Source of the DNA: Escherichia phage p000y
Strand: one strand, 5' to 3'
DNA length: 64,000 nucleotides
Sequence record: MK047718.1
The notes below the pieces were generated by a model that ran no database searches, had not been told where the DNA came from, and saw only the letters and a program-made list of their open reading frames with translations. Made by a program: the position numbers and the translations under genes. Shown piece by piece: positions 3,175-64,000 of the stretch (positions within the stretch are counted from its first letter, which is position 1; each line of letters opens with the position of its first letter).

Positions 3175-3203
3175 AGCCCCTTCCGAAAGGTCGGGGCTTT
3201 TTG
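3175..3203 (+). terminator. Rho-independent terminator after rI
   Basis: AGCCCC...GGGGCT stem with inner CC-GAAA-GG, followed by TTTTT. Confidence 0.6.
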
Positions 3204-3213
3204 GCATCTATCA

Positions 3214-3242
3214 GTTTACTTCTCCTCAGGTTGTGTTATAGT
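3214..3242 (+). promoter_or_regulatory. Early sigma70-type promoter (GTTTAC -35, TATAGT -10)
   Basis: GTTTAC 3214-3219, 17-bp spacer, TATAGT 3237-3242. Confidence 0.55.
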
Positions 3243-3269
3243 AAACCTTACTTACTAGAGGAGAACGTT

Positions 3270-3449
3270 ATGTCACGTAAAGAAAAAATTTCTAAGTTAA
3301 TGTTTTTGATTGAAGAGTACGCTAATGCGGTATCTGATTGGGAAAATGCTCATGGTTGCGAAGATGGAGACATCGACATTAACAGAGCTATGAAAAAGAT
3401 GGCCGAAGCCCACACCGAATTGCAAATGTATGTTAACGAGATTATGTGA
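3270..3449 (+). CDS. Hypothetical protein, 59 aa
   Basis: RBS GAGGAG upstream of ATG 3270. Confidence 0.4.
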   Translation: MSRKEKISKLMFLIEEYANAVSDWENAHGCEDGDIDINRAMKKMAEAHTELQMYVNEIM

Positions 3450-3456: not shown

Positions 3457-3663
3457 ATGCTTTACGATTATACTGGAAAATCTGAAGACGGTGTACTTGA
3501 ACTTTTACCTGAAAGCGCTGAAGATGATGATATGGTGGTGATGTTTTGTAAAAATGGCCCTGGGGATAAGGGATGGATTTATCTTCGTCAAGAAAATGAC
3601 TTAATTGTTTTGGACCCTAAACAAGTTGAAGAACTTTATCAACATTTAAAACACAATCGGTAG
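3457..3663 (+). CDS. Hypothetical acidic protein, 68 aa
   Basis: RBS GTGAGG upstream of ATG 3457. Confidence 0.4.
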   Translation: MLYDYTGKSEDGVLELLPESAEDDDMVVMFCKNGPGDKGWIYLRQENDLIVLDPKQVEELYQHLKHNR

Positions 3664-3698
3664 TTTACATCTTGGTAGGACTATGTTATAGTAGTCCT
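3663..3698 (+). promoter_or_regulatory. Early promoter with embedded stem-loop (PeSL-like cassette)
   Basis: GTTTAC 3663-3668, TATAGT 3687-3692; 8-bp inverted repeat TAGGACTA/TAGTCCTA spans the -10. Confidence 0.55.
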
Positions 3699-3827
3699 AT
3701 CAAAACAAACGGAGAACAAAATGAAACTTTTGCTTATCGCTTATGTTGTAGTACAATACAATTATCCGATGTTTACTTATAACATGGTAAACGGCATAGT
3801 GAATCTTATTGAAACGAGTATGGTAAA

Positions 3828-4549: not shown

Positions 4550-5023
4550 ATGATTATCAATGAAAACTCTTGGCACTTTAAAATTTATGCCACGTTTAAT
4601 AGTACATGGAATCGTCCGAAAACGTTGTGTGCTTATTTTTGGAAAACGCTAATCCCGGTATTGGCTGCTTCAATTATTGGATTTGCGATTTTAGCAGCAG
4701 TCACAATCATTGGTCAGGAAATTTTAACTAAATTCTTTGTTTTTAGCAGTCTATGGACATTAGTTCCAGCTTCAATTGGTATAGGCATTTTAACAATATC
4801 AGTAATGGTTCTTATTGCTGTCGGGGCGGTAATTGGTCCATCTTGGTTATTAGACAAATATAACGACAGAAAATATTATAAAGAAATTGAGCTCATTGCA
4901 CAAAACCAAGAACGAATTAAAAATGGACTTGAGCCTATTGAACGTAAGAAATCATTAATAGGTGAATACATTAAAGCTCGTAAAGAAAAAGTCTGTCCTA
5001 CTCTTGAATATAAGGCTAAATGA
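4550..5023 (+). CDS. Integral membrane protein, 157 aa
   Basis: Several long hydrophobic segments (LIPVLAASIIGFAILAAVTIIG..., LVPASIGIGILTISVMVLIAVGAVIG). Confidence 0.5.
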   Translation: MIINENSWHFKIYATFNSTWNRPKTLCAYFWKTLIPVLAASIIGFAILAAVTIIGQEILTKFFVFSSLWTLVPASIGIGILTISVMVLIAVGAVIGPSWLLDKYNDRKYYKEIELIAQNQERIKNGLEPIERKKSLIGEYIKARKEKVCPTLEYKAK

Positions 5024-6009
5024 TGAAAACAATTATGAAAGGCTACTTTGGTAGCCACCTTTATGGAACGTCTACTCCTGAATCTGACGTCGATTTTAAA
5101 GAAATTTATGTCCCTCATGCTCGTGATATCTTGACCGGTAACGTTAAAGAACACATGAGCAAGAACACTAACAACACTGCTTCTAAGAACACAAAAGACG
5201 ACGTGGACCATGAGTTGTATAGTCTCAAATATTTCTTTAAACTAGCTGCAGATGGTGAAACCGTCGCATTAGATATGCTTCACACCCCACAAAGTCTAGT
5301 AGTTAAATCTGATTTGCCTGATGTATGGAAGTATATTCAAGATAACAGGTCTCGTTTCTATACCACTAACATGAAATCTTATTTAGGGTATGTCCGTAAG
5401 CAAGCTTCTAAATATGGTGTCAAGGGTTCTCGACTGGCTGTTCTTCGTCAAGCCCTTAAACGTTCTAATGAATGGGGACAATACTTTGATAATGGTGCAG
5501 TAATTCGTTTATCACATATGAAGAACGTTCTGCCTGTAGGTGAATTTGCTTCATGGGTTGAAACCGAAAACGAGAAAACAGGTAAGCAAACATTCTATAA
5601 TCTGTTGGACCGTAAATTCCAAGACACGTTAACCAATAAAGAGTTCAATGCCATCCTGGTTAAACTGGAAGAGAACTATGGTGAACGTGCTCGTAAGGCG
5701 GAAGCCAACGAAGGTATTGACTGGAAAGCATTGAGTCATGCATGTCGTGGTGGACTTCAACTATTGGAAATTTATAAAACCGGTGACTTGGTTTACCCAC
5801 TTCAGGATGCTCCATTTATTCTCGATGTTAAGCTTGGTAAACATACGTTTAAAACTGTACAAGAATTCCTAGAAGATATTGTTGACCAAGTTGAACATGC
5901 GTCAGAACAAGCTGCCAAGAATGGTATGCAACAAAAAGTAGATATGAGTTTCTGGGATGATTTCCTTGAGCAAGTCTATCTCGAAAATCATAATTCTTAC
6001 TATAAATAA
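5020..6009 (+). CDS. Pol-beta-superfamily nucleotidyltransferase-fold protein, 329 aa
   Basis: GS-x(n)-DhD motif GSHLYGTSTPESDVDF plus a downstream acidic ETVALDML, the hallmark of minimal NTases; ATGA-coupled to the membrane protein. Confidence 0.5.
   Translation: MMKTIMKGYFGSHLYGTSTPESDVDFKEIYVPHARDILTGNVKEHMSKNTNNTASKNTKDDVDHELYSLKYFFKLAADGETVALDMLHTPQSLVVKSDLPDVWKYIQDNRSRFYTTNMKSYLGYVRKQASKYGVKGSRLAVLRQALKRSNEWGQYFDNGAVIRLSHMKNVLPVGEFASWVETENEKTGKQTFYNLLDRKFQDTLTNKEFNAILVKLEENYGERARKAEANEGIDWKALSHACRGGLQLLEIYKTGDLVYPLQDAPFILDVKLGKHTFKTVQEFLEDIVDQVEHASEQAAKNGMQQKVDMSFWDDFLEQVYLENHNSYYK
6001..6008 (+). promoter_or_regulatory. Candidate late promoter (TATAAATA)
   Basis: Exact TATAAATA about 33 nt upstream of the 6041 start. 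Confidence 0.35.
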
Positions 6010-6311: not shown

Positions 6312-6333
6312 GGGGACCTTCGGGTCCCTTTAG
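6312..6333 (+). terminator. Rho-independent terminator (UUCG tetraloop hairpin)
   Basis: GGGACC-TTCG-GGTCCC followed by TTT. Confidence 0.6.
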
Positions 6334-6358
6334 GGGGTTAAAATATTTTAAAAAAGTA

Positions 6359-6387
6359 GTGTACATGCTTTTAGGATATGTTATTAT
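6359..6387 (+). promoter_or_regulatory. Early promoter (GTGTAC -35, TATTAT -10)
   Basis: 17-bp spacing; followed by the TATAGACCTATC element. Confidence 0.5.
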
Positions 6388-6425
6388 AGACCTATCGAAA
6401 CGAAATGAGTAAATTGGAGAATAAA

Positions 6426-7406
6426 ATGTTCAACGTTCAAATCAAAAAAGGTATCTATCGTAATAACGAAATCTCTGGATCTTATGTCGCCACAAAGACA
6501 TGGTTCCCAGCAAAGCTTAATCCTGAATGTTCCCACTTAGGTGATGGTAAAATTTTCGTTATGATTGATGGTTCTGAACGTGGAGTATGGGTCTTCAAAT
6601 CAGACATCGTAATGGAAGGAGTTGAGACATCACCAGTTGCAGTTGTTGAAAGCACTGAAGATATGAAAACTCGTATCAACAAACGCTTTAAAGTAATGAA
6701 CATGATGACGAATGGCATTATCGATGGCAAAATTCGTTCACTCATCATTTCAGGTGCAGCCGGTATTGGTAAGACGTATTCTCTGGATAAAGCACTTAAT
6801 AATGCTAATGATAATGGTTTCATCAAATACAAAAGCATTAATGGTAAAATCTCTGGTATCGGCCTTTACGAACAACTTTGGCTCAACCGTGATGCAGACA
6901 GCGTTCTCTTAATCGACGATGTTGATGTATTCTCTGATATGGATATCTTGAACCTTCTTAAAGCAGCATTAGATACCGGAGATAAACGCAAAGTTTGTTG
7001 GAGCACTGCGTCATCTTATCTTGATGATAAGGGTATTGATAAAGAATTTGAGTTTGAAGGTACTATCGTTTTCATTACAAACGTTGATATCGATAAAGAG
7101 TTAGAACGTGGTTCGAAACTTGCCCCACACCTTCAAGCTTTAGTATCTCGTTCAGTGTATCTCGACCTTGGAGTACACTCTAATGAAGAGATTATGGTTC
7201 GAGTTGAAGACGTAATATTATCTACTGACATGATGCAGAAACGTGGTCTGACTGATGCTGAAACGTACAAAGCATTGTCCTGGATGAAGGCTAACGTATC
7301 TCGTCTTCGCAATGTATCATTACGTACGGCTCTTTATGTAGCAGATTTTATTTCAACTGATAAAGATGGTTGGGAGGAAATCTCCGAAGTAACTTTACTG
7401 AAATAA
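6426..7406 (+). CDS. AAA+/P-loop ATPase, about 326 aa
   Basis: Walker A GAAGIGKT and Walker B LLIDDVD; start placed at ATG 6426 with RBS GGAG (the track ORF starts at 6405). Confidence 0.55.
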   Translation: MFNVQIKKGIYRNNEISGSYVATKTWFPAKLNPECSHLGDGKIFVMIDGSERGVWVFKSDIVMEGVETSPVAVVESTEDMKTRINKRFKVMNMMTNGIIDGKIRSLIISGAAGIGKTYSLDKALNNANDNGFIKYKSINGKISGIGLYEQLWLNRDADSVLLIDDVDVFSDMDILNLLKAALDTGDKRKVCWSTASSYLDDKGIDKEFEFEGTIVFITNVDIDKELERGSKLAPHLQALVSRSVYLDLGVHSNEEIMVRVEDVILSTDMMQKRGLTDAETYKALSWMKANVSRLRNVSLRTALYVADFISTDKDGWEEISEVTLLK

Positions 7407-7833: not shown

Positions 7834-7868
7834 GTTTACAAGGTCTATGGTTATGTTATTATAGACCT
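7834..7868 (+). promoter_or_regulatory. Early promoter with stem-loop (PeSL-like)
   Basis: GTTTAC 7834-7839, TATTAT 7857-7862; inverted repeat AGGTCTAT/ATAGACCT. Confidence 0.55.
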
Positions 7869-7889
7869 ATCAACTACTGGAGGTAAAAC

Positions 7890-8417
7890 ATGAACGCTAA
7901 AGATATTTTCAACCTGGTAAATTATAACGACGGTAAATTTAAATCTGAAGCACAAAGCAAGTTCTTTAACGATGTTGCTTATGGTAACGAGATTACCGTG
8001 GATGGAGGTCAGATTTTCAAATCTCGCTGGAATTGGATTGTTATCATCGATTCAGTTGGAATTGTGGAAGTCTACAAAAACACTAACAAAAAACGTACAT
8101 TATTCTGGTCTCGTGAAACTAACGAGCAGTACAAAAAGGATAAAGCATCTCGTTTATCCAAAGTAACCCAGGAAGATATCGACTTCATCAAGAAAGATAT
8201 CGAGATGTACGAAAATTTAATTGCTGAAGACCAGGCAGTACTCGATAAGTTTGATGAAATTAAAGCTTCTCGTGAAATCCCTGACTTCATGAAAGAAACA
8301 GTAAACGAACGATACGCTCTCACTTCAGAACGTATTGCAAACTACACAAAACAGAAAGCAGAACGTATTAGTACTCTTCGGAAATTTGAAGAACGTTTAA
8401 AGACGGTTCACGCATAA
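7890..8417 (+). CDS. Hypothetical protein, 175 aa
   Basis: RBS GGAGG upstream; C-terminal coiled-coil-like region. Confidence 0.45.
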   Translation: MNAKDIFNLVNYNDGKFKSEAQSKFFNDVAYGNEITVDGGQIFKSRWNWIVIIDSVGIVEVYKNTNKKRTLFWSRETNEQYKKDKASRLSKVTQEDIDFIKKDIEMYENLIAEDQAVLDKFDEIKASREIPDFMKETVNERYALTSERIANYTKQKAERISTLRKFEERLKTVHA

Positions 8418-9475: not shown

Positions 9476-9504
9476 TGTACAACCAAGGATGGTTGGAGTA
9501 TAAT
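9475..9504 (+). promoter_or_regulatory. Early promoter, copy of the repeated CAACCAAGGATGGTTGGAGTATAAT cassette
   Basis: ATGTAC -35, TATAAT 9499-9504; palindromic spacer CAACCA-AGGA-TGGTTG. Confidence 0.55.
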
Positions 9505-9530
9505 AAATTTTTCAACATGAGGAATATAAA

Positions 9531-10490
9531 ATGGCTTTTATTACACGTAGAGAACTTATCAAAGAATTTACCTCGAACGCATATACCCCAGGACCTAATC
9601 CTATCCGTATGCCTGTAAAGACTCCTGAAGAGATTGAGGAAATCTGTTCATATTATGGGATTACTTCTCGTAAGTTTACTCAATTTGAATGCGTTACTAA
9701 CACACCCGTTAAAGAGTTCATTAAAAATGGTGAGTTCAGCCGTTTATTAGCCAAACAGAAACTTCGTAATTTTTGTATCGGCGGTGAAGGACAATATTTC
9801 GCTAAACAGTTCCGAAATAACCTTAACAATCTGATGGCCATTGCTTCTCGTATTCGTCCTCAAGCAATTAACATGAAACATTTGAAATATACTTATGATA
9901 AGTTAGAAATCATGGTTATCAGTGAGAATGAGTTCACTCTTACATATAAACCTAAGAATGATAACGTTGCTCGTGTATTCCACCAAGCGTTGGAAGTTTT
10001 AGGTGATAATATCCACCAGATTAAAGCGATTTATTCTCGTGAGCTTAATATTATCAACCCTATCAAGAATAAGGGCCATATCGCTATCCAGGCTCGTGTA
10101 TCTATTGGTAAAAAGGTTCCTGCGCCGTGGTGGCACAAAGACTCTGAATACTATCAAAATCTTAAAAAGGAAAATGCAACGTTTGAAGCATCGCTTACTG
10201 GGACCCCAATTGAACAGGCCGAAGTCCTAAGTGCTTATTCTACTTCGGGTAAATCAATGTTTAAAGGTTTGCCAAATGTGTGCAAACTGTCTGCAGTAAA
10301 ACTAAATGTTTCTAATGACCTTCTTCCGGCCGAAGATTACCATTACAATCAAATCAAGGCCACTATGGACCAACTGTCTGTTGAACTTGACAAAGCACAA
10401 GCTAAGCTTCGTGATGCTCAACAAGTAGTTACCAATCTCCAGTTGCAGTACTCTAAACTTTTTAACGCAATGAATGCATTAAAATCATAA
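9531..10490 (+). CDS. Hypothetical protein, 319 aa, with C-terminal coiled coil
   Basis: RBS GAGGAA upstream; C-terminus ...QAKLRDAQQVVTNLQLQYSKL. Confidence 0.45.
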   Translation: MAFITRRELIKEFTSNAYTPGPNPIRMPVKTPEEIEEICSYYGITSRKFTQFECVTNTPVKEFIKNGEFSRLLAKQKLRNFCIGGEGQYFAKQFRNNLNNLMAIASRIRPQAINMKHLKYTYDKLEIMVISENEFTLTYKPKNDNVARVFHQALEVLGDNIHQIKAIYSRELNIINPIKNKGHIAIQARVSIGKKVPAPWWHKDSEYYQNLKKENATFEASLTGTPIEQAEVLSAYSTSGKSMFKGLPNVCKLSAVKLNVSNDLLPAEDYHYNQIKATMDQLSVELDKAQAKLRDAQQVVTNLQLQYSKLFNAMNALKS

Positions 10491-10494
10491 ATCA

Positions 10495-10524
10495 GTTTAC
10501 AACCAAGGATGGTTGGAGTATAAT
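10495..10524 (+). promoter_or_regulatory. Early promoter, second copy of the repeated cassette
   Basis: GTTTACAACCAAGGATGGTTGGAGTATAAT, identical to the 52491-52520 copy. Confidence 0.55.
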
Positions 10525-10552
10525 GAATCTATCTTAACGAGAGGAAAATATT

Positions 10553-11497
10553 ATGACACGTTCACATTACATTGATTATTTTGCAGGTCTTATCGCTAAT
10601 GTTCATGCCCAACGTGCTTCTGGTTCATTAGGATTTGATGTTCCACACCGAGATGTAGTAAGTGGTATTCTTCGCGATTTTGGTACATATACCGGCCAAG
10701 AAAATCATATCTGTAAAGATACTCAAAATGCGTATTCTCATTCATTAGGGACACTGCTTCAATGGTTCAAACGTTCTCGTTTATTATCTTCTACTGTAGC
10801 TCGCGATAACATTAAAAACTTTATGAAACCGAGCTTTATTAAATCTGTGACATCTAAAACCGATTTGGTTGAATTCACTATTGTTAATGATGTTAAAAAG
10901 ACTCATTTAGCTGATTGGTTATCTACCATTCCTGAAACTAAATTTGCTGATAAATTTGCTTGTGAATTCAATAACCAAGTGAATATGCTTTTTAAACATT
11001 CTCGTAAATTATTCACTGGCGGTGATGGTCGTACAAATAAAGTTCATGTTAAAGATTGGGTTACTGCAGTATTCAAACCAACCGGTAATGGTAACGCATC
11101 ATTATCAATTGATATCCAGGTTCCTTATTACTACTCACGTAATCTCGGTACCATGAAAGCCGAAGAAATTAAGAAGCACAATAAAACCGTTCGTTCGCTG
11201 TCTTATAAACTTCGTATGATGTTACAGACTATGGATGTTGTTGAAATGTTCGACGAAACCGAAGATAACGGTTCAATGTTATTCAGTTCTCGAATTAAAA
11301 TTAAACTGAAGAACCCTAATGTGTTTAAGCCTATTAAAGAACCTAAAGCAGAAAAGGTTGATATCATGGCTGAAGAACGTGAGTACCTCAAATCTCGTCT
11401 GAAAGAAGTCGAAGCCCAGATTGCAGAACAAACTAAATCGTTAAAAGCTCTGAATGCGAAAGCGGATGGTTTACGAAATGCCATTGAGGTGTTATAA
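10553..11497 (+). CDS. Hypothetical protein, 314 aa, with C-terminal coiled coil
   Basis: RBS GAGAGGAAA upstream; C-terminus ...LKEVEAQIAEQTKSLKALNAKADGLRNAIEVL. Confidence 0.45.
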   Translation: MTRSHYIDYFAGLIANVHAQRASGSLGFDVPHRDVVSGILRDFGTYTGQENHICKDTQNAYSHSLGTLLQWFKRSRLLSSTVARDNIKNFMKPSFIKSVTSKTDLVEFTIVNDVKKTHLADWLSTIPETKFADKFACEFNNQVNMLFKHSRKLFTGGDGRTNKVHVKDWVTAVFKPTGNGNASLSIDIQVPYYYSRNLGTMKAEEIKKHNKTVRSLSYKLRMMLQTMDVVEMFDETEDNGSMLFSSRIKIKLKNPNVFKPIKEPKAEKVDIMAEEREYLKSRLKEVEAQIAEQTKSLKALNAKADGLRNAIEVL

Positions 11498-12873: not shown

Positions 12874-12903
12874 GTTTACAACGACGAAGAAACATGTTAT
12901 GAT
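12874..12903 (+). promoter_or_regulatory. Early promoter (GTTTAC, TATGAT)
   Basis: GTTTAC 12874-12879, 18-bp spacer, TATGAT 12898-12903. Confidence 0.45.
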
Positions 12904-12952: not shown

Positions 12953-13123
12953 ATGCAAGTTAAATTATTGTACCGTTTATTAAAAAATGGCAAGCACGAT
13001 TGGTATTTGCTTATTAAAACCGATCCGAATTTTTTCTCTGGGCAACCATTTACAGTTCGTCCTACTAAACGTCAGCTTCGCAAAGCTAAACGTTCTCATC
13101 GTAACTTTTATAGAGAATATTGA
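12953..13123 (+). CDS. Small basic protein, 56 aa (paralogue of 13548-13727)
   Basis: C-terminus RPTKRQLRKAKRSHRNFYREY resembles RPTKKMIRQYKRFHRDFYNVY in the downstream ORF. Confidence 0.4.
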   Translation: MQVKLLYRLLKNGKHDWYLLIKTDPNFFSGQPFTVRPTKRQLRKAKRSHRNFYREY

Positions 13124-17568: not shown

Positions 17569-17597
17569 GTTTACATCCTCAATAGATGTGTTAAGAT
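17569..17597 (+). promoter_or_regulatory. Early promoter (GTTTAC, TAAGAT)
   Basis: GTTTAC 17569-17574, 17-bp spacer, TAAGAT 17592-17597. Confidence 0.45.
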
Positions 17598-17625
17598 TAA
17601 ACCATCTACTATAGAGGAAAATAAA

Positions 17626-17807
17626 ATGACAATTGAAGATAAAGAATTAAGGTCGACCAGTACTATTCTGTCAACGGTAATGCAGTACAGATAACCAGAG
17701 TTTCAAGCCTGGATGTTTGGTACCGTTCAATCAAATATCCAGAAATTGGTGAAATGCTTTGTGACCGTGGTATCTTCTGTTCAATTGCGAAGGAAATTAA
17801 GCCATGA
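17626..17807 (+). pseudogene. Small gene apparently split by a frameshift (ATG 17626 in one frame, 55-codon open continuation in another)
   Basis: RBS GAGGAAA upstream of ATG 17626, which stops after 22 codons at 17692; the frame starting at 17643 is open to TGA 17805-17807 and ATGA-coupled to the next gene but has no start codon. Confidence 0.35.
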
Positions 17808-18755: not shown

Positions 18756-18995
18756 GTGGCCCAAGAATTAGATTTTATCAAATTCAAAAAACACCTCGAC
18801 GTTAAAATTGGGGATTCAATTGTTAGGATTGAGTATGACATTTTAACAGATGCTATTACTGTTAGATGTGATGGAAATAGTTTCAGCTTCGATACAACCG
18901 AAAACAAATACCCAATCTATAAAGGCATCTTTGATATGGGTGTTGATATTACTCCGCGTGATACAAATTACTTACTTTTCATGCTTAAAAAATAG
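18756..18995 (+). CDS. Hypothetical protein, 79 aa (GTG start)
   Basis: RBS GAGGAAA upstream of GTG 18756. Confidence 0.4.
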   Translation: MAQELDFIKFKKHLDVKIGDSIVRIEYDILTDAITVRCDGNSFSFDTTENKYPIYKGIFDMGVDITPRDTNYLLFMLKK

Positions 18996-19030
18996 TATAC
19001 AAACTCTTGAGAGATGAGTATAATTCTCTC
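18995..19030 (+). promoter_or_regulatory. Early promoter with stem-loop (PeSL-like), near-duplicate of 63962-63996
   Basis: GTATAC -35, TATAAT 19019-19024; GAGAGA/TCTCTC inverted repeat. Confidence 0.55.
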
Positions 19031-19061
19031 GTTGGATAATAAAATAACCGAGGAAAATAAT

Positions 19062-19891: not shown

Positions 19892-19935
19892 TGCTTTAAG
19901 ATAGGTCTCTAAATATTATGATATAATAGACCTAT
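19892..19935 (+). promoter_or_regulatory. MotA-box (TGCTTTA) with downstream stem-loop and TATAAT, upstream of gene 55
   Basis: TGCTTTA 19892-19898; inverted repeat ATAGGTCT/AGACCTAT 19901-19935; TATAAT 19922-19927. Confidence 0.4.
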
Positions 19936-19956
19936 GAATTGAGCCAAGAGGTACTT

Positions 19957-20514
19957 ATGACTGAACAAAAACCTAAAAATAACTATGTGAATAATAAAGA
20001 GCTTCTCGCCGCTATAATCGAGTGGAAAAAGGAGCTCTTAAATAATAAAGACCCAAACAAAATTATTCGTCAGAATGATACCATCGGTTTAGCAATTATG
20101 CTTATCGCCGAAGGCCTGTCCAAACGTTTCAACTTTTCAGGATATACCCAGTCTTGGAAGCAGGAGATGATTGCAGATGGGATTGAAGCCTCTATTAAGG
20201 GACTTCATAATTTCGACGAAACTAAGTACAATAACCCACATGCATACATAACTCGAGCTTGTTTTAATGCTTTTGTCCAACGTATCAAAAAAGAACGTAA
20301 GGAAGTTGCAAAGAAATATAGTTACTTCGTTCATAATGTCTACGACAGTCATGACGATGATATGGTAGCGTTGGTAGATGAAACGTTTATTCAAGACATC
20401 TACGATAAAATGACGCATTATGAAGAATCCGCTTATAAAGCTCCTGGGGCTGAAAAGAAGGAAGTTGTTAGCGATTCGCCTAGTTTGGATTTTTTATATG
20501 AGGATGACAATTGA
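19957..20514 (+). CDS. 55: Late-transcription sigma factor gp55
   Basis: 185 aa from ATG 19957 (RBS GAGG); ...[13 protein letters not shown]...[50 protein letters not shown]... reads as T4 gp55. Confidence 0.9.
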
Positions 20515-40500: not shown

Positions 40501-40505
40501 TAAAA

Positions 40506-40523
40506 AGGAGACTTCGGTCTCCT
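40506..40523 (+). terminator. UUCG-tetraloop hairpin after gene 41
   Basis: AGGAGAC-TTCG-GTCTCCT followed by TT. Confidence 0.5.
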
Positions 40524-40529
40524 TTCGGG

Positions 40530-40558
40530 GTTTACATCTTCCTCTAGGCATGATATGA
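40530..40558 (+). promoter_or_regulatory. Early promoter (GTTTAC, TATGAT)
   Basis: GTTTAC 40530-40535, 17-bp spacer, TATGAT 40553-40558. Confidence 0.5.
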
Positions 40559-40588
40559 TGAACTTACACCAACCAAGAGGAAAACATT

Positions 40589-40963
40589 ATGAATATGTCT
40601 CAAGCAATTTTTACTGCAATCACCGAAAACACAACTGTTGAAGTAGTTTCTCCACTGGCAACCTACGTTATTCTTGCTCCTAAAACTATTGTATCTCGTA
40701 TGGAAAACATGGGCAAACGTATCGTACAAATAGTTGGAGCTGGAAATCAAAAACTTGATTATCTACGAACCATCAAAGCTTATGAACATTTCCAACTCGA
40801 AAAAGGTTCTCCTATCCAGGTAGAACTCGTAAATGGTGATATCGTTCGAGCAATGTTCCATCATTTCTATGCATTGAATGACCCATCTAAAGCGGTTCGT
40901 TTAATTGCATACGACGCAAACCAAAAAGAAATCAACGCAGATGTATCTAAATTACGTTTTTAA
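40589..40963 (+). CDS. Hypothetical protein, 124 aa
   Basis: RBS AAGAGGAAA upstream. Confidence 0.45.
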   Translation: MNMSQAIFTAITENTTVEVVSPLATYVILAPKTIVSRMENMGKRIVQIVGAGNQKLDYLRTIKAYEHFQLEKGSPIQVELVNGDIVRAMFHHFYALNDPSKAVRLIAYDANQKEINADVSKLRF

Positions 40964-41010
40964 GTTTACTTCTCCAGTAGTTGTGTTATTATAGACCTAT
41001 CAACTACTGG
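40964..41010 (+). promoter_or_regulatory. Early promoter inside a 10-bp inverted repeat (PeSL-like)
   Basis: GTTTAC 40964-40969, TATTAT 40987-40992; CCAGTAGTTG ... CAACTACTGG flank the -10. Confidence 0.55.
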
Positions 41011-41018
41011 AGAACAAA

Positions 41019-41336
41019 ATGAAAACCATCGATTGTAAAGCAGAATTTAAGATTTTTTATCACGGTTCAAGTAGTTCAGCTAACATCGAAAACATGCTTT
41101 GTCCTCCTGAGGAAACAGGAGTTCTGTCTGAAACTGGACGTAAGAAAAACTTGGATCGTGTATTCTTTACTGAAGATATCGGTTTAGCAAAGATTTATGC
41201 AGGACGAGCGGCACGCTCTTATGGAGGTGAACCACGTCTCTATCGAGTAATTTCTCCGGTAGACGTAGTTCAAATGAATAATACTAAAGGTGCTACAGTT
41301 TATCACGCTGAATGGGCATTTTGCGAGGAAATATGA
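41019..41336 (+). CDS. Hypothetical protein, 105 aa
   Basis: RBS GGAGAA upstream. Confidence 0.4.
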   Translation: MKTIDCKAEFKIFYHGSSSSANIENMLCPPEETGVLSETGRKKNLDRVFFTEDIGLAKIYAGRAARSYGGEPRLYRVISPVDVVQMNNTKGATVYHAEWAFCEEI

Positions 41337-41534: not shown

Positions 41535-41564
41535 GTTTACAAGCACCGCATACTGTGTTACTAT
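41535..41564 (+). promoter_or_regulatory. Early promoter (GTTTAC, TACTAT)
   Basis: 18-bp spacing. Confidence 0.45.
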
Positions 41565-41592
41565 CTTTCTATCAACTACAGAGGAAATTGAA

Positions 41593-41961
41593 ATGAAAAA
41601 ATTAATCGCTTTAGCAATGGTATTTGGATTAACCGGATGTGGTGCCCACGGCTTTATCCCTAATAACGTTGGCCAACTGATTTACAATCCGAATGTTAAA
41701 CAGTACGACCAACCTAAAGTTGAAGTGGAAGATCCGGTTACTGTAGGTAATCGAATGATTCAAGCTGATGCTCATGCTCAACGTTATCGTGATTCTGATA
41801 CTGTAGCATTGTCAAAAGAACAACGCGTTAAAGAACATTGTCTACAGGCTACTGAAATCGCATTCATTCGCTATGTTGAAACAACTGGTAAAGAGCCTAC
41901 CCAGAAACAAATCGCGAATAACTACGTCCAGTGTATTGAACGTTTAAACAAATTTAATTAA
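41593..41961 (+). CDS. Lipoprotein, 122 aa
   Basis: Signal peptide with lipobox LTGC (MKKLIALAMVFGLTGCGAHG). Confidence 0.55.
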   Translation: MKKLIALAMVFGLTGCGAHGFIPNNVGQLIYNPNVKQYDQPKVEVEDPVTVGNRMIQADAHAQRYRDSDTVALSKEQRVKEHCLQATEIAFIRYVETTGKEPTQKQIANNYVQCIERLNKFN

Positions 41962-42275: not shown

Positions 42276-42310
42276 GTTTACATTATAGATGGACTATAGT
42301 ATAGTAGTCC
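42276..42310 (+). promoter_or_regulatory. Early promoter with stem-loop (PeSL-like)
   Basis: GTTTAC 42276-42281, TATAGT 42300-42305; GGACTA/TAGTCC inverted repeat. Confidence 0.5.
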
Positions 42311-42334
42311 TATCAAATCAACTAAGGAGTTAAA

Positions 42335-42628
42335 ATGAAAAAGTTATCATTGGCAGCAATCTTACTTGCAGTATCATGTGCACCGGCTCCAGTTACGGCA
42401 GGTTATGATAAAGACCTCTGTGAGTGGTCAATGACTGCAAATCAAGAAGATGTTGAACAACAAATCTTCTCTGATATCATGAACATCACTAAACGAGACC
42501 GTCCTAATATGGTTAATAAAGTTGTTGAACAACTTAAGTCTGGTGGTATCATGCAGTACAACTATGTTTTGTATTGTGACCCTAATTTCGATAACAAAGA
42601 TATCGTAACCGAAATCACAGGTGAATAA
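42335..42628 (+). CDS. sp: Periplasmic protein, 97 aa; candidate Spackle (sp) superinfection-exclusion protein
   Basis: Signal peptide MKKLSLAAILLAVSCAPA; size and position relative to 41/61 match T4 sp. Confidence 0.4.
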   Translation: MKKLSLAAILLAVSCAPAPVTAGYDKDLCEWSMTANQEDVEQQIFSDIMNITKRDRPNMVNKVVEQLKSGGIMQYNYVLYCDPNFDNKDIVTEITGE

Positions 42629-46458: not shown

Positions 46459-46466
46459 ATAATTTA

Positions 46467-46492
46467 AGGAATCCTTCGGGATTCCTTTTTTT
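46467..46492 (+). terminator. Rho-independent terminator after soc
   Basis: AGGAATCC-TTCG-GGATTCCT followed by TTTTTT. Confidence 0.8.
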
Positions 46493-46502
46493 GTTTCTAC
46501 AG

Positions 46503-46531
46503 TTTACAACCACTAAAAACTGTGTTAAGAT
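46503..46531 (+). promoter_or_regulatory. Early promoter (GTTTAC, TAAGAT)
   Basis: 17-bp spacing. Confidence 0.45.
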
Positions 46532-46559
46532 ATTCTTACTTACTCAAGAGGAGAACAAT

Positions 46560-46787
46560 ATGTTAAATCGTTGGATTAAACCTAATAACACATTAGGTGC
46601 TTTGATTGCTCAAGAAGTTTCGTTGAAATACGGTCTTGGATATTACGATGATGTAGTCGTACACTCATTCATGATGGATGGTGAAGACGTCAAATTTAAT
46701 GCCGAAATCCGTTGGGATGACGGTGGTGTTCGTTTTGTTCGAGGAACAATTAATGCTTACGATGCTGAAGAAGTTGTTTGCTGTTAA
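46560..46787 (+). CDS. Hypothetical protein, 75 aa
   Basis: RBS AGAGGAG upstream of ATG 46560. Confidence 0.45.
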   Translation: MLNRWIKPNNTLGALIAQEVSLKYGLGYYDDVVVHSFMMDGEDVKFNAEIRWDDGGVRFVRGTINAYDAEEVVCC

Positions 46788-47970: not shown

Positions 47971-47999
47971 GTTTACATTCCCTCCTCTCGTGTTATGAT
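47971..47999 (+). promoter_or_regulatory. Early promoter (GTTTAC, TATGAT)
   Basis: 17-bp spacing. Confidence 0.5.
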
Positions 48000-48026
48000 A
48001 GGCTTATCTTTAAATGGAGGTCTATC

Positions 48027-48608
48027 ATGACATGTCAATCTGAACTTCAAGAACGTGAATACCTAACAAATCTGATTGATAGCAAATTCACCCGCCAAGA
48101 ACAAAACATTCTCTGGGCTTGCACCGATTCTAAGGAAGACCCAGATTTCCACTATGAATTAGACCATCTTGTTCGTAAGCATATGACTTCTACAGTACCA
48201 GTAGAACTCTACCGTGGTGTAACTCCAGAAGAAGTAGAACGTCTTTCCCTTCTTTCTGTTGGATGCCATTGGTCTCCTGGACGAGTAACATCGTTCACAA
48301 CTGATTTCGGTACGGCTCGTCAATTCTCCGGGAGATGGGAATATCAGACGTACACTATTCTTAGTCTCAGGAATGCTCCATTCATTTTTGATTACTACCA
48401 AAACATGGTTAACATTGTACTCGCCGGAAAGAACCCTAAACATGTTATGGAAGAAACGCGTGTTGACGTCTTAGATATGATTGAATCTGAACAAGAGTAC
48501 ATGGTCTCAAGTATCTCTAGATTTGAGATTGTGGAAATTGAAGACTTAGAATATGACCCTTTATCTCGATTATACAAAATCATTCATTTGAAAATGTTGA
48601 ATTTTTAG
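48027..48608 (+). CDS. modB: ADP-ribosyltransferase, ModB-like
   Basis: 193 aa; R ... S-x-S ... E-x-E arrangement (YRG, SFT, ESEQE); paralogue of the next gene; position upstream of srd/dda as in T4. Confidence 0.5.
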   Translation: MTCQSELQEREYLTNLIDSKFTRQEQNILWACTDSKEDPDFHYELDHLVRKHMTSTVPVELYRGVTPEEVERLSLLSVGCHWSPGRVTSFTTDFGTARQFSGRWEYQTYTILSLRNAPFIFDYYQNMVNIVLAGKNPKHVMEETRVDVLDMIESEQEYMVSSISRFEIVEIEDLEYDPLSRLYKIIHLKMLNF

Positions 48609-48637
48609 TGTACAAACTCTTCCGATGATGATACTAT
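48608..48637 (+). promoter_or_regulatory. Early promoter (GTGTAC, TACTAT)
   Basis: 18-bp spacing; followed by TATAGACCTATC. Confidence 0.45.
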
Positions 48638-48665
48638 AGACCTATCAACCACAGGAGAAACCTAA

Positions 48666-49274
48666 ATGTTTATGCCGTATAACGAGTGTGAAATTGAAGA
48701 AATGGTTCGTCGTGCTCAAAACCCTGAATATCAAGATGAATTGCAGTATGAAATTGATAGTCAATTCAGTGACATTGAACAAAGTGTACTGTGGCGGTGT
48801 ATGGAAAACAAGCCAGACTGTATTCAACAGGAGTTAAGTTCAATCGTTCGTAGAAATTGGACGTCTTCTGTTCCTGAGACAATGTATCGTGGAATCTCTA
48901 AGAAAACTATGGCCGCACTCGATGATAAAGGCATTGGTAGTATTATTAAATTTGACAGAGTAATGAGCTTCAGCCCAGTGTTCGGTGTAGCACGTAACTT
49001 TGCTTCGTATAATTTTTACGGAACATTTAATATGTTCTGCATCAAAGATGCACCATTTGCTTTCAACTTCCGTGAACATATGCTTAACATGATTCTGGCT
49101 GCGCCATCTTGTGAGTTCAATGGAGCTTTCCCTGAAGCGACAAGACGGTCTAATGCTAGACTTATATCCGACGAATGTGAATTTATGCTCCCTATAGGGA
49201 CTACACTGCGTGTAGATTCTATTATTCAAGATGGACGTTATACAATCTGGAATCTGTCTATTGTCAGTTACTGA
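48666..49274 (+). CDS. modA: ADP-ribosyltransferase, ModA-like
   Basis: 202 aa; YRG, SFS and ECEF motif elements; shared architecture with 48027-48608. Confidence 0.5.
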   Translation: MFMPYNECEIEEMVRRAQNPEYQDELQYEIDSQFSDIEQSVLWRCMENKPDCIQQELSSIVRRNWTSSVPETMYRGISKKTMAALDDKGIGSIIKFDRVMSFSPVFGVARNFASYNFYGTFNMFCIKDAPFAFNFREHMLNMILAAPSCEFNGAFPEATRRSNARLISDECEFMLPIGTTLRVDSIIQDGRYTIWNLSIVSY

Positions 49275-52490: not shown

Positions 52491-52520
52491 GTTTACAACC
52501 AAGGATGGTTGGAGTATAAT
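52491..52520 (+). promoter_or_regulatory. Early promoter, third copy of the repeated cassette
   Basis: GTTTACAACCAAGGATGGTTGGAGTATAAT, identical to the 10495-10524 copy. Confidence 0.55.
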
Positions 52521-52550
52521 CTTTCTATCTTAACCAAACAGGAAAACATT

Positions 52551-53045
52551 ATGAATATCAATACCACGGCTACTTACATCCTGAAAGATGAAAAACAAAT
52601 CAACTGGTACGGTGCTTCAGTGCGAGCTTATGAAAAGTTTTGTGAAATTTTAGGTGCCACTCAAGGTAATAGTTTCACTATTGTTAACTTCATCAAACAA
52701 GTTGAAGGCCCTTGGTTATTCTTAGAAATTAAAAATTCATATGGTATAATTTCTACTACCGCCCTTCCAAGCACCGACTTTGAACTGTTGATTGAAGAAG
52801 TAGAACCCGTTAAAGATATCTGTATTGATATGGATATCGCTTGTATGTACGGTACTCTGATTAAGCCTATTGAGCCTACTGATTTGTTGTGTAAATATGT
52901 TTCAATTCGACGCCCATTCGCTGGTCCAGTAAATGGATGGGTAACTGACCAATGGATTGAAGACGGTGTTGAACTTCTGAACGTTGTTCATGCAGGTGAT
53001 TTTAGTGTAGTTCCACGTAGTGCTGTGGTTAATATCCTTAATTAA
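52551..53045 (+). CDS. Paralogue family member 1 (C-terminal VTDQWIEDG motif), 164 aa
   Basis: ATG 52551 with RBS AGGAAA; shares its C-terminal motif with the two following ORFs. Confidence 0.45.
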   Translation: MNINTTATYILKDEKQINWYGASVRAYEKFCEILGATQGNSFTIVNFIKQVEGPWLFLEIKNSYGIISTTALPSTDFELLIEEVEPVKDICIDMDIACMYGTLIKPIEPTDLLCKYVSIRRPFAGPVNGWVTDQWIEDGVELLNVVHAGDFSVVPRSAVVNILN

Positions 53046-53047
53046 TG

Positions 53048-53077
53048 TTGTACATCCAAGGACGGATGGAGTATAAT
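53048..53077 (+). promoter_or_regulatory. Early promoter, variant of the repeated cassette
   Basis: TTGTAC ... CCAAGGACGGATGGAG TATAAT. Confidence 0.5.
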
Positions 53078-53107
53078 GAATTCAACTTAAACAAAGAGAG
53101 AGAAATT

Positions 53108-53563
53108 ATGATTACTATTGGTGAAATTAAGCGTGTATCGTCTGCATCTCGTTCTAAAGCTGCAGGTCGTCTAGTTGAAGTGGTAGGACTTCGTACTAAT
53201 GGTACTGGTCGTGTTAAAGAAGTTAAAGTTCGAATCATTCCTAGTTCTGGAAAAACTGAAACTCAGTACGCTTACGTAAGTCCTAAATTCTTGGAAACTC
53301 ATGTGAGCGCTCATTTTGCTTCTACTGAACCTAATGTACAGTTCAAATGGGCCTTGTGTAAAGGTGTTGAATTCCAGACTGATAAAGAATTTGACTTCAT
53401 CGATGAATACGGTTATCCAAGCAAAACTGATACTATGTGTGGCTTCATTAGTGACCAATGGGTTGAAGATGGTGAAAAGTTATACAATATCGTATTCTTA
53501 GGTGACTTCCGAGTTGTTAAAGAATCTGAAATCACTCGCTATGTGTCTCCTCGTAAAGCTTAA
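53108..53563 (+). CDS. Paralogue family member 2 (FISDQWVEDG motif), 151 aa
   Basis: ATG 53108 with RBS AGAGAGAGAAA. Confidence 0.45.
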   Translation: MITIGEIKRVSSASRSKAAGRLVEVVGLRTNGTGRVKEVKVRIIPSSGKTETQYAYVSPKFLETHVSAHFASTEPNVQFKWALCKGVEFQTDKEFDFIDEYGYPSKTDTMCGFISDQWVEDGEKLYNIVFLGDFRVVKESEITRYVSPRKA

Positions 53564-53996: not shown

Positions 53997-54025
53997 GTTT
54001 ACTTCTCCTCCGGTTTTGATATTAT
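53997..54025 (+). promoter_or_regulatory. Early promoter (GTTTAC, TATTAT) with flanking inverted repeat
   Basis: 17-bp spacing; CTCCTCCGGTT ... AACCAGAGGAG. Confidence 0.5.
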
Positions 54026-54051
54026 AACCATATCAACCAGAGGAGAATAAT

Positions 54052-54576
54052 ATGTTAGTTTACCGCGTAGAACGTAGTTTTTGTACTCAACGTGAATCAT
54101 TACCAGGAATTGCTATCGAAGACGGTAAAGCCGTCAGAATTTGGGAAACCTCTTGGAATAAAGAACCTCGCTCGCCATACGGTTGGTCGGGCACCGACAA
54201 CTCTGAAGAAACATGGGAGTTCCTTGATAAGCATGGAATACTCTCAGGTAACTTCTACCATCACGGCGACAACTATAATGTCCCTAATCGTCCTACAGTA
54301 AATGAAGACAAACTCCTTGAACAAAATATCTTAAGATACCATAGAATTGAGTACACATTTGAATTGAGTGAAGATTGGGCTCAAGGGTTCTATTTTGGAT
54401 TTGAAAGCGTTGACGCGGTTTATGCATGGTTTGATGACCAGGTGGATGTTGAACTCTTGAAAGCTAAAGGATACTACATCGCGGTCTATGAAGCACCTGA
54501 TTTCATCCTCGGAAGTTGTCAATTAATGTTCAGACGTTCATTGGCAGAACAAGTTGATTTTATTTTGCTAAAATGA
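54052..54576 (+). CDS. Hypothetical protein, 174 aa
   Basis: RBS AGAGGAG upstream. Confidence 0.45.
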   Translation: MLVYRVERSFCTQRESLPGIAIEDGKAVRIWETSWNKEPRSPYGWSGTDNSEETWEFLDKHGILSGNFYHHGDNYNVPNRPTVNEDKLLEQNILRYHRIEYTFELSEDWAQGFYFGFESVDAVYAWFDDQVDVELLKAKGYYIAVYEAPDFILGSCQLMFRRSLAEQVDFILLK

Positions 54577-54605
54577 TGTACAACAACTATGGTTTATGAT
54601 ACTAT
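54576..54605 (+). promoter_or_regulatory. Early promoter (ATGTAC, TACTAT)
   Basis: 18-bp spacing; followed by TATAGACCTATC. Confidence 0.45.
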
Positions 54606-54633
54606 AGACCTATCAAATCAAGAGGAGAATATT

Positions 54634-54861
54634 ATGAAATGTCAAATCATTAAAAACGTAACTACTGATTCAAACATCGATGAGTTTGAAGATGTTCTGT
54701 TTAATCCTGATTTAGTTGTTGTACAGAAAAACTGGACCGGATTTTTATGCTACACCGAAGTGGTTTACGTTTACGAAAAACTCGGCGATGAAATGCCTAT
54801 CTATGGTATCTTCCGTGAAATCACTGAAAACGGTACAACTTATTGGAAGGAAACTTACTAA
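54634..54861 (+). CDS. Hypothetical protein, 75 aa
   Basis: RBS AGAGGAG upstream of ATG 54634. Confidence 0.4.
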
Positions 54862-63191: not shown

Positions 63192-63226
63192 GTTTACAAC
63201 TAAGTAGGACTATGATATAGTAGTCC
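63192..63226 (+). promoter_or_regulatory. Early promoter with stem-loop (PeSL-like)
   Basis: GTTTAC 63192-63197, TATAGT 63216-63221; TAGGACTA/TAGTCCTA inverted repeat, as at 3663. Confidence 0.55.
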
Positions 63227-63247
63227 TATCTAAAAGAGGATAACATC

Positions 63248-63511
63248 ATGAAATTTAAATTTTTCTACGCAAAACATAAAGTAACAGGCGAATTTGTTTC
63301 AATGTACAACACTGCAGATGACGAAGGGATGATTTATACCCATTTGGGTCTATCTCATTGGGACTCAGACGTGCCTTATATGTCATCTGAAGCCGAAATA
63401 ACTCGTTTAGTTAACGGACATATGAACGACCATTTTAGTGTTATTCTTTCTAAAGACCTTAAAGAGGTTATCAACAAAGGATATATGGAACTTGCGGAAG
63501 TTGAGATATGA
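63248..63511 (+). CDS. Hypothetical protein, 87 aa
   Basis: RBS AGAGGA upstream. Confidence 0.4.
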   Translation: MKFKFFYAKHKVTGEFVSMYNTADDEGMIYTHLGLSHWDSDVPYMSSEAEITRLVNGHMNDHFSVILSKDLKEVINKGYMELAEVEI

Positions 63512-63700: not shown

Positions 63701-63735
63701 GTTTACAACAAGGTAGGATTATGGTATAGTAGTCC
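63701..63735 (+). promoter_or_regulatory. Early promoter with stem-loop (PeSL-like)
   Basis: GTTTAC 63701-63706, TATAGT 63725-63730; TAGGA(T/C)TAT / ATAGTAGTCCTA. Confidence 0.5.
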
Positions 63736-63758
63736 TACTGAAACATGAGGAACACAAA

Positions 63759-63959
63759 ATGGCTAAGCTTTTTAAAGATGTTGAAATTGGTGAAAAATTT
63801 GTTCTGAATAACGGTCAGCAGCTTATTCGTGTAGCTTCTATCGCCGGACAAACTCATAACTGTATCGCCCCAACGTGTTGGACTCGATTCTTTATTGAAG
63901 ATGACACTGAATGTTTAACTGTTGAAGAGCTTTTTGAACGTTCCGATATAGCCGAATAA
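63759..63959 (+). CDS. Hypothetical protein, 66 aa
   Basis: RBS TGAGGAA upstream. Confidence 0.4.
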   Translation: MAKLFKDVEIGEKFVLNNGQQLIRVASIAGQTHNCIAPTCWTRFFIEDDTECLTVEELFERSDIAE

Positions 63960-63961: not shown

Positions 63962-63996
63962 TTGTACAAACTCTTGAGAGCAGAGTATAATGCTCT
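63962..63996 (+). promoter_or_regulatory. Early promoter with stem-loop, near-duplicate of 18995-19030
   Basis: TTGTAC -35, TATAAT 63986-63991; GAGAGC/GCTCTC inverted repeat. Confidence 0.5.
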
Positions 63997-64000
63997 CATG

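Follow-up and report, generated by a model that had tools for sequence, protein, structure and literature searches.

Hairpin-enclosed early promoters as probable single-gene cassettes in the early region of an RB69-like coliphage

The 64,000-nt stretch of Escherichia phage p000y analysed here (sequence record MK047718.1; hereafter the window) was assigned by megablast to the Mosigvirus (RB69-like) coliphages, a T4-type group, and carries a set of early promoters, among them the element at positions 3663-3698, in which the sequence around the -10 hexamer can fold into a hairpin. It is probable, in our view, that these elements are early-gene cassettes of the promoter-early stem-loop (PeSL) type, in which the hairpin separates read-through RNA from locally started RNA and the shared sequence feeds recombination. 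The complementarity between the promoter spacer and the sequence downstream is maintained by selection, since four independent controls (shuffling, swapping of promoter halves, a census of inverted repeats, and covariation) agree.

The focal early promoter (3663..3723) reads G-TTTACA-N17-TATAGT-AGTCCTATC, with the -35 hexamer at 3664-3669, the -10 hexamer TATAGT at 3687-3692, the box AGTCCTATC at 3693-3701, and the start codon ATG at 3721; like all promoters described below, it lies on the + strand. Perfect 8-bp arms, TAGGACTA (3676-3683) and TAGTCCTA (3692-3699), enclose an 8-nt loop that contains most of the -10 hexamer, the last one or two bases of which fall into the stem. Folded as RNA, the stem comprises 13 bp (3672-3684 with 3691-3703) at -18 kcal/mol and z = -6.8, and none of 200 shuffled sequences was as stable. 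In the orthologous promoter of phage HX01, three substitutions extend the stem and one disrupts a pair.

A search of the window with a T4-type promoter pattern, T[GT]TAC-N16-18-TAnnnT followed by a Shine-Dalgarno sequence (SD) and ATG, revealed 22 clear early promoters, all on the + strand. Two copies found later, at 18995 (with a degenerate -35) and at 63962 (cut by the window end), bring the total to 24. A position weight matrix (PWM) built from the promoters gave 27 positions with at least 14 bits on the + strand and none on the - strand. The promoters are located at 3.2-19.9 kb, 40.5-54.6 kb and 63.2-64 kb, that is in hyperplastic regions, which agrees with a sequence-only reading of this DNA that had assigned them to the accessory regions. 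Neither pattern nor PWM detected an early promoter in the core replication block at 20-40 kb, from gene 47 to gene 41 (the gap in the PWM matches extends from about 20 to 40.5 kb). In the 22 promoters the -35 and -10 elements are separated by 16 or 17 nt (T[GT]TAC-N16/17-TAnnnT), and for 15 of them the start site (+1) is predicted at the A of ATC. The 5' untranslated region, taken from the predicted +1 to the ATG context, measures 20-24 nt in 20 cases and 32 and 44 nt in the other two. In 20 of the 22, the A+T content of the 25 nt upstream of the promoter is 60-88%; the other two, 3215 and 40531, both have a terminator in front of them. A generic sigma70 consensus scan of the window showed no enrichment (73 sites versus 73 in shuffles) and is uninformative because the genome is AT-rich; the distinctive feature is the T4-type promoter within its gene-start context. 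From orthology to the T4 early promoters we infer that these promoters are active.

A shared box behind the -10 hexamer had also been proposed, and the box AGWCCTAYC indeed occurs 11 times in the window versus 0.82 expected. Eight of these 11 occurrences stand on the + strand immediately after the -10 hexamer, spanning -6 to +3, a position which agrees with the preference of RB69 early promoters for C at -3 to -1 (PMC1524935).

When the promoters were folded from the -35 to the ATG, a helix enclosing the -10 with a free energy of -10 kcal/mol or lower was found in 10 of the 22. Together with 18995 and 63962, a stem enclosing the -10 is present in 12 of 24 promoters, its 5' arm being the spacer, so that the earlier claim of at least ten promoters with their -10 in the loop of a stem was borne out. 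The sites named in that claim all turned out to be promoters, with a G/A-T[GT]TAC -35 that starts 55-58 nt 5' of the SD/ATG. Besides the focal element, strong stems are found at 7834, 40964, 42276, 63192 and 63701 (-11 to -21 kcal/mol, z from -3.4 to -5.9), but the stem at 54576 is weak. The mean energy of the duplex between spacer and downstream sequence is -10.2 kcal/mol, versus -5.8 kcal/mol with shuffled spacers (standard deviation of the mean 0.4), and duplexes of -9 kcal/mol or lower occur at 12 promoters versus 2.6 expected, with a maximum of 6 in 300 shuffles. Chimeras joining the 5' half of one promoter to a foreign 3' half fold worse than the native sequences (permutation p < 5e-5). 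The census of inverted repeats was restricted to perfect repeats with arms of at least 8 nt and compared with a simulated null, as the repeat listing is otherwise dominated by short palindromes. It counted 55 repeats versus 33 ± 5 in the simulations, seven of them in promoter zones, which occupy 2.2% of its length, and thereby supported the earlier reading as well.

Covariation was followed in the AACTCTTG family of promoters, defined by the pattern [GT]T[GT]TACA-AACTCTTG-N5-AGAG-TATAAT-N6 and represented by 19 distinct sequences from T4 (motB), Mosigvirus (among them 18995 and 63962) and other T4-like contigs. All 133 of 133 cells pair (100%), versus only 35-52% in controls with a slid partner, and compensatory double changes occur in four of seven pairs. 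The arms are found in the variants GGACC/GGTCC, GGAGC/GCTCC, AGAGC/GCTCT, GGGTC/GACCC and AGAGA/TCTCT, and the covariation score of 0.55 (versus 0.29) was reached by none of 500 shuffles. In a further family, GTTTACT-TCTCC-N11-TAT, five distinct extensions of the 5' arm are each exactly complementary to the bases 5' of GGAGA (AGTAGTTG/CAACTACT, TCTGGTT/AACCAGA, TCTAGTTG/CAACTAGA, TCATG/CATGA and TGTAGATG/CATCTACA), with a mean extension of 4.0 pairs in native versus 1.2 in swapped combinations. The arm sequences thus vary freely among promoters, and the constraint therefore lies on the pairing and not on a protein-binding motif. A broad scan with GTTTACA-N17-TATAGTA returned mostly chance matches, with about ten usable T4-like promoters that serve as anecdotal cases only, and a harvest of orthologs from IMG/VR by anchor sequences and the ModB protein yielded too few loci for covariation at single promoters.

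The hairpins fall into classes according to the partner of the spacer. In class A, the 3' arm is the discriminator/+1 box AG(T/A)CCTATC (-6 to +3) or an equivalent discriminator, the -10 lies within a loop of 6-10 nt between perfect arms, and the hairpin is located a few nucleotides after the upstream stop codon. In addition to the focal promoter (-35 at 3664), this class comprises the promoters with -35 elements at 7835, 18995, 42277, 63193, 63702 and 63962 and, with a weak stem, 54577. At 7834..7892, positions 7841-7851 pair with 7858-7868 around the core AGGTCTAT/ATAGACCT (-13.4 kcal/mol, z = -4.0). The AACTCTTG-family promoter at 18995..19055 has the degenerate -35 TATACA and pairs 19005-19014 with 19025-19036; its arms GAGAGA/TCTCTC correspond to GAGAGC/GCTCTC in the ortholog L004, a compensatory change. 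Upstream of sp (spackle), the promoter at 42276..42337 pairs 42288-42297 with 42304-42314 (-11.1 kcal/mol, z = -3.4). Three members stand near the end of the window: 63192..63250 in the denB-ndd region, with 63204-63213 paired to 63220-63229 (-13.2 kcal/mol), 63701..63761, with 63712-63722 paired to 63729-63739 including a U.G pair (-13.6 kcal/mol, z = -4.7), and the second AACTCTTG-family promoter, 63962..64000, with 63975-63982 paired to 63991-63998. The weak stem at 54576..54636, a promoter with the box AGACCTATC, has eight pairs, two of them G.U, and -6.9 kcal/mol.

In class B, the SD pairs, across loops of 17-30 nt, with an anti-SD run (TCTCC...) within the promoter spacer. Its members are 3215, 17570, 40531, 40965 and 53998, and modB at 47972 is a variant in which the -10 and discriminator, instead of the spacer, pair with the SD-AUG region. 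In the first of them (3176..3272), the promoter (-35 at 3215, -10 at 3237-3242) stands behind a GC-rich terminator that has a T run (3176-3202). Here the stem is formed by the spacer TTCTCCTC (3220-3227) and the SD GAGGAGAA (3258-3265), and opening the ribosome-binding site (RBS) is predicted to cost 8.5 kcal/mol more in read-through RNA than in the promoter's own transcript. At 17570..17628, the spacer TCCTC..TAGATG pairs with CATCTA..GAGGA (opening difference 8.0 kcal/mol). The element at 40504..40591 begins with a TTCG-loop terminator (40504-40525); in the promoter behind it (-35 at 40531), the spacer TTCCTCT and the SD AGAGGAA form the stem. The promoter at 40964..41021, which carries the box AGACCTATC, has 14 perfect base pairs (40970-40983 with 41001-41014, including the SD), a hairpin energy of -21.1 kcal/mol and an opening difference of 14.7 kcal/mol. 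In the modB promoter (47972..48029), TATGATAGGCT of the -10 and discriminator pairs with GGTCTATCATG of the SD-AUG region, and the same occlusion is predicted for T4 (14.8 kcal/mol in the window, 14.0 in T4). Finally, at 53997..54054, positions 54003-54010 pair with the SD at 54040-54047, extended by GGTT/AACC and with one C.A mismatch, giving a hairpin of -19.2 kcal/mol and an opening difference of 10.6 kcal/mol. Overall, at 3215, 17570, 40965, 47972 and 53998, read-through RNA is predicted to need 8.0-14.8 kcal/mol more than the own transcript to open its SD-AUG region, versus at most 4.0 kcal/mol at control gene starts (Mann-Whitney p = 0.001). At these five promoters the SD/AUG is thus predicted to be paired in RNA initiated upstream and free in RNA begun at the internal promoter. 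In T4, comparable differences are predicted for motB.2 (11.3 kcal/mol) and mrh.2 (6.3 kcal/mol).

On the proposed mechanism, each cassette would consist of a very strong sigma70 promoter (AT-rich UP region, GTTTAC, 16-17 nt, often TGn, TAnnnT) whose own transcript begins at or within the 3' arm. Such transcripts would be unstructured and could not fold because the 5' arm is absent, and the hairpin would therefore arise only in RNA from an upstream promoter and would distinguish read-through RNA from locally started RNA. We infer that the hairpin forms in RNA and affects translation or termination. In class B, the RBS would be buried in read-through RNA, at five or six promoters in all, and translation would proceed essentially only from transcripts of the own promoter. 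For class A, the best guess is that the hairpin, which has no U tract and lies where the upstream cistron ends, acts as an attenuator, pause site or barrier at the 3' end. Protein output of a cassette might cease after shut-off of the early promoters, despite transcription through the region. The more specific proposal that the anti-SD spacers form a subclass of T-even-type early promoters acting as insulators, so that a gene is translatable only from its own promoter, silent on early or middle-mode read-through RNA and limited to the immediate-early period, is put forward tentatively, as a possibility that falls somewhat short of an even chance. If true, this arrangement would make single-gene cassettes independent of their genomic context and would mirror the control of e, soc and 49, which are translated only late. 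The 60-100 bp of sequence common to the cassettes would, in addition, offer homology for the insertion, deletion or swap of single-gene modules.

The recombination part of this proposal was addressed by comparing 41 kb of the window with eight segments of seven Mosigvirus genomes by local blastn. Of 17 indel or replacement events, eight touch a cassette, and crossovers inside promoters could be resolved to the nucleotide at three junctions with hybrid promoters. The motB paralog at 52521-53050 is absent from the relatives L001 and L003, where a hybrid promoter with 52492 as its left and 53049 as its right part takes its place; the crossover points differ between the two relatives. In L001, the ORF (open reading frame) at 54052-54576 is missing as well, and a hybrid of 53998 and 54577, joined at GGTTT, retains the anti-SD stem. 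An extra ORF lies between two promoters in L005 and L007, and the promoter 6360 of the window is their recombinant, joined within ATGTTATTATAGACCTATC. Two more insertions are bounded by a duplicated terminator just 5' of 3215 and by the UP region of 41536. Altogether, 13 of 34 breakpoints fall into cassettes, which account for 5.7% of the compared DNA (binomial 2e-8).

Several results weigh against the proposed interpretation or narrow it. The breakpoint enrichment shrinks to about two-fold when it is considered that gene junctions constrain breakpoints and that about 25% of the junctions carry a cassette. Nine of the 17 indels occurred without cassette involvement, and the cassette-free events include the insertion of a homing endonuclease and recombination between repeated C-terminal coding motifs. 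The expectation that the elements mark the boundaries of shuffled modules thus holds at the three hybrid junctions and for the 13 breakpoints, but not for these nine events; the cassettes are one shuffling substrate among others. Among ten non-Watson-Crick positions, eight are G.U and two A.C on the sense strand, an excess that suggests pairing on the sense strand with a marginal asymmetry of about p = 0.055, and the folding energies of sense and antisense strand showed no overall difference in the window (p = 0.6 and 0.22). A stem is absent from six or seven promoters. Where a stem lies within the promoter, no U tract (T run in the DNA) follows it, and the terminator scan listed none of these stems. 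Class A hairpins leave the SD uncovered, with opening differences of about 0-2 kcal/mol, and for this reason the function of class A stays a guess.

The role originally proposed for the PeSL stem-loop was that of a Rho-independent terminator or attenuator of upstream transcription, and the same could be assumed for the stems of the window, which directly follow the upstream stop codon. An RB49 PeSL stem-loop placed between promoter and lacZ cut expression as much as rrnB T1 (PMC2839356), but in that assay termination cannot be told apart from effects on translation or stability. Furthermore, the in-promoter stems do not have the anatomy of a Rho-independent terminator (GC-rich stem, short loop, U tract): they are AT-rich, their loops reach 30 nt, and the sequence downstream of them is A-rich (e.g. 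...CCTATCAAAACAAAC), whereas separate GC-rich hairpins with T runs exist upstream of 3215, 6360, 40531 and 46503. The role of terminator attributed to PeSLs has no anatomical support here, as the stems lack a U tract and were missed by the terminator scan, and we regard this explanation as unlikely. Slightly less likely still is an action of the inverted repeats in DNA, either by extrusion of a cruciform or hairpin, which would pre-melt the -10, or as a recombination hotspot, e.g. a substrate of endonuclease VII. The 6-10 nt loop that holds the -10 between the perfect arms of class A, the crossovers within cassettes and the overall similarity of sense and antisense energies would all fit such an action. 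The 17-30 nt loops of class B, however, disfavour cruciform extrusion, the wobble positions are mostly sense-strand G.U, sigma70 promoters require a duplex spacer, and plain homology accounts for the crossovers.

Two further explanations appear very improbable, to about the same degree. The palindromes could be operators for the shut-off of early promoters by a dimeric DNA-binding protein, a process whose mechanism is not fully understood (PMC3014915), and the repeats do overlap the -10 element; yet the arms are wholly different among promoters (TAGGACTA, AGGTCTAT, GAGAGC, GGGACC, TCTCCAGTAGTTG), and compensatory substitutions in the arms fit nucleic-acid pairing rather than a sequence-specific protein site. 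Alternatively, the complementarity might be a functionless by-product of AT-rich chance or of cassette copying, as the unenriched generic sigma70 scan and the paralogy of several cassettes (e.g. four class C promoters and the shared box) would allow. This is largely refuted by the covariation in the AACTCTTG family: compensatory double changes are seen between orthologs and paralogs, and the shuffle, swap and slid-partner controls all reject chance.

The remaining promoters have other stems or none. Class C is characterized by the repeated spacer ACCAAGGATGGTTGGAG with a small stem-loop between -35 and -10 and comprises the promoter at 9476..9533, its near-identical copy at 10496..10555, and those at 52492..52553 and 53049..53110, the left and right recombination partners in the loss of the motB paralog from L001 and L003. 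Only weak internal stems were found at 6360, 48609 and 54577. The first of these promoters (6359..6428, box AGACCTATC) has a terminator-like stem at 6323-6339 upstream, and the second is the modA promoter (48608..48668, box AGACCTATC), which has no convincing stem. Folding and terminator scan detected no stem of any kind at 41536, 41966 and 49350; the promoters at 41536..41595 and 41966-42025 serve as internal negative examples. At 46466..46562, a TTCG-loop terminator (46466-46487 plus T run) precedes a promoter with -35 at 46503 and no internal stem, and this upstream terminator is its only hairpin. Conventional GC-rich hairpins with T run thus stand upstream of four promoters (3215, 6360, 40531 and 46503), two of them with a TTCG loop. 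Five perfect 8-9 bp stems with TTCG tetraloops were noticed in the window (21431-21450, 28065-28084, 38749-38768, 40504-40525 and 46466-46487), of which at least 40504 and 46466 have T runs and lie directly upstream of early promoters; the TTCG stems look like the real terminators of the region.

Upstream of gene 55 (19892..19959, + strand), a MotA-box-like GTGCTTTAA is followed by a perfect 8-bp inverted repeat, ATAGGTCT at 19901-19908 and AGACCTAT at 19928-19935. The repeat encloses TATGATATAAT including TATAAT (-9.2 kcal/mol, z = -1.9) and ends in the same AGACCTAT box as early promoters; this element may be a candidate middle-promoter version of the cassette, similar to the middle-promoter stem-loops (PmSL) of nt-1. 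Two other promoter-like sites were observed. A match to the early promoter at 12875-12903 (19.6 bits, TTTACA-N17-TATGAT with TGn) has no stem, stands outside the count of 22, and is located about 80 nt 5' of ATG 12987 (pin), inside a small ORF or at its end. The palindromic element at 18696-18741, TAGGAAGA-N10-TCTTCCTA, is promoter-like both ways: the + strand reads GTTTACA-N15-TAACAT-G-TCTTCCTATC upstream of a GTG-start ORF at 18756, and the - strand reads TTTAAG-N17-TATTAT with the top PWM score on that strand (13.9 bits). The unusually long leader of srd (44 nt) holds TAACGTCCGTAAGA at 49400-49413, and the T4 srd leader (NC_000866 near 11800) keeps the same motif as AACCGTCCGTAAGA, though the promoters differ; TAACGTCCGTAAGA may therefore be a leader RNA motif.

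By megablast, the window shares 97-98% identity with Shigella phage JK36/JK42, with APCEc01 and with about 150 further records, and all of its long ORFs are on the + strand. According to the annotation of the relatives, the gene order starts with regB, vs, tk and rI, followed by mobD/nrdC.x genes, then 49, nrdD, nrdG, the 55.x genes and 55, then 47, 46, 45, 44, 62, regA, 43, 42, uvsX and 41. It continues with dmd, sp, 61, 56, soc, modB, modA, srd, dda, dexA, motB paralogs and cef and ends with 39, rIIA, rIIB, denB and ndd. The window is thus T4's classical counter-clockwise early region as the reverse complement. Within it, tandem arrays of paralogs are found at 8480-11497 (three genes of about 320 aa, nrdC.6/.5/.3-like) and at 52551-53992 (three motB-like genes), and in both arrays a near-identical class C promoter stands upstream of two of the genes. 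These promoters suggest that the arrays arose by duplication of cassettes through their promoters. Among the relatives, phage NRG-P0074 (L005 4818-5589) carries a 770-bp homing-endonuclease gene at the junction of the ORFs 4550-5023 and 5020-6009, which the window lacks (5014-5019). At 13062-13115 and 13654-13710, two small neighbouring ORFs encode similar basic C-terminal motifs, RPTKRQLRKAKRSHRNFY and RPTKKMIRQYKRFHRDFY, and in L007 and L008 the 549 bp between the repeated motifs are missing, so that recombination between coding motifs would be a second, promoter-free route of cassette loss.

With these results, the RB69-like Mosigvirus group becomes the third T4-type lineage with portable promoter-hairpin cassettes. 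As PeSLs were already known, the RBS-sequestering subclass and the covariation are modest additions; for specialists, a known concept is refined without surprise. Compared with the original PeSL descriptions, statistical and covariation evidence of selection is added, together with nucleotide-level hybrid promoters at natural indel junctions. The label "terminator" is called into question by stems without a U tract, the alternative being a hairpin that tells read-through from local RNA. The subject is relevant to the correct expression of newly acquired phage accessory genes wherever they are inserted, and to the design of insulated expression cassettes.

Several known systems can be compared with the elements of the window. 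In the T-even phages, Repoila and colleagues reportedly described in 1994 repeated early-promoter sequences flanking small variable genes at the internal-protein (IP) locus and proposed shuffling (as cited in PMC4122927); that work reportedly dealt with this one locus and contained no hairpin analysis. The promoters of N4 type consist of an extruded DNA hairpin with a 5-7 bp stem and a 3-nt loop and are used by a phage RNA polymerase; this type is ruled out by the loops of 6-30 nt and the canonical host sigma70 -35 and -10 boxes. No Rfam family matches the elements.

PeSL cassettes were defined in RB49 and phi1 (Arbiol et al. 2010, PMC2839356) as a sigma70-type early promoter with an AT-rich upstream region, a stem-loop in one of five allowed positions, SD and ATG, located in hyperplastic regions, and were later described for PST/T4, together with PeSL/PmSLs for nt-1/KVP40 (Comeau et al. 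2014, PMC4122927). All of these sequence-level features were found in the elements of the window, with 12 stems enclosing the -10, four between -35 and -10, and four promoters with a terminator hairpin just upstream; the earlier identification as PeSL elements is thereby upheld, and the elements belong to this kind because they agree with its sequence-level definition (Arbiol 2010; Comeau 2014). In RB49 and phi1, recombination between neighbouring cassettes likewise deletes or inserts single ORFs, the cassettes cluster in hyperplastic regions, and the stem-loop is most often located between -35 and -10 or overlaps the -10 (PMC2839356). In contrast, RB49 stems are polyG/polyC and its promoter is a near-perfect TTGACA/TATAAT (PMC2839356), whereas the stems of the window are AT-rich, with a -35 GTTTAC and the lineage-specific box AG(T/A)CCTATC. 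Among the traits ascribed to PeSLs are, moreover, a stem-loop that terminates or attenuates transcription in vivo and encapsidated mini-circles that arise when adjacent cassettes recombine. The PeSLs of PST/T4 share the T-even consensus TTTACW-N17-TAYWAT and stems of the form AGNA-loop-TCNT, into which TAGGACTA/TAGTCCTA fits, and the denB-ndd region, where the window has 63193, 63702 and 63962, is a hotspot of PeSL exchange (PMC4122927). PST stems are placed just upstream of the promoter (figure legend, PMC4122927), whereas most stems of the window enclose the -10. The PmSLs of nt-1/KVP40 find a counterpart in the candidate middle-promoter version at gene 55. Neither PeSL paper (PMC2839356, PMC4122927) mentions RB69, translation, ribosomes or covariation.

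A closer functional analogy is offered by the T4 genes e, soc, 49 and I-TevI, in which the SD/AUG is paired in longer transcripts initiated upstream, and the 5' strand or loop of the hairpin contains the proximal promoter, whose own transcripts are therefore translated (PMC3014915). As in these genes, the inhibitory arm is missing from the own transcripts of the class B promoters. The T4 promoters are, however, gp55-dependent late promoters (TATAAATA) with a temporal role, namely late-only translation (PMC3014915), whereas the internal promoters of the window are of the early sigma70 type, and their effect, by analogy, would be cassette autonomy or early-only translation. For this reason the elements would work like the e/soc/49/I-TevI family without being members of it. 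T4 itself, in the 22 kb examined, contains classes A and B, and five of eight promoters have 13-18 pairs enclosing the -10. The T4-like IMG/VR contigs L018, L019, L045 and L055 (171-175 kb) carry a box of their own behind the -10, ACTCCTACAC, and their spacers are complementary to this box or to the SD, e.g. TTGGTGTAGGAG...ACTCCTACACCAA. Judged by such sequences, the hairpin-promoter architecture appears to be common to T4-like lineages, and the sequence of the box to be specific to each.

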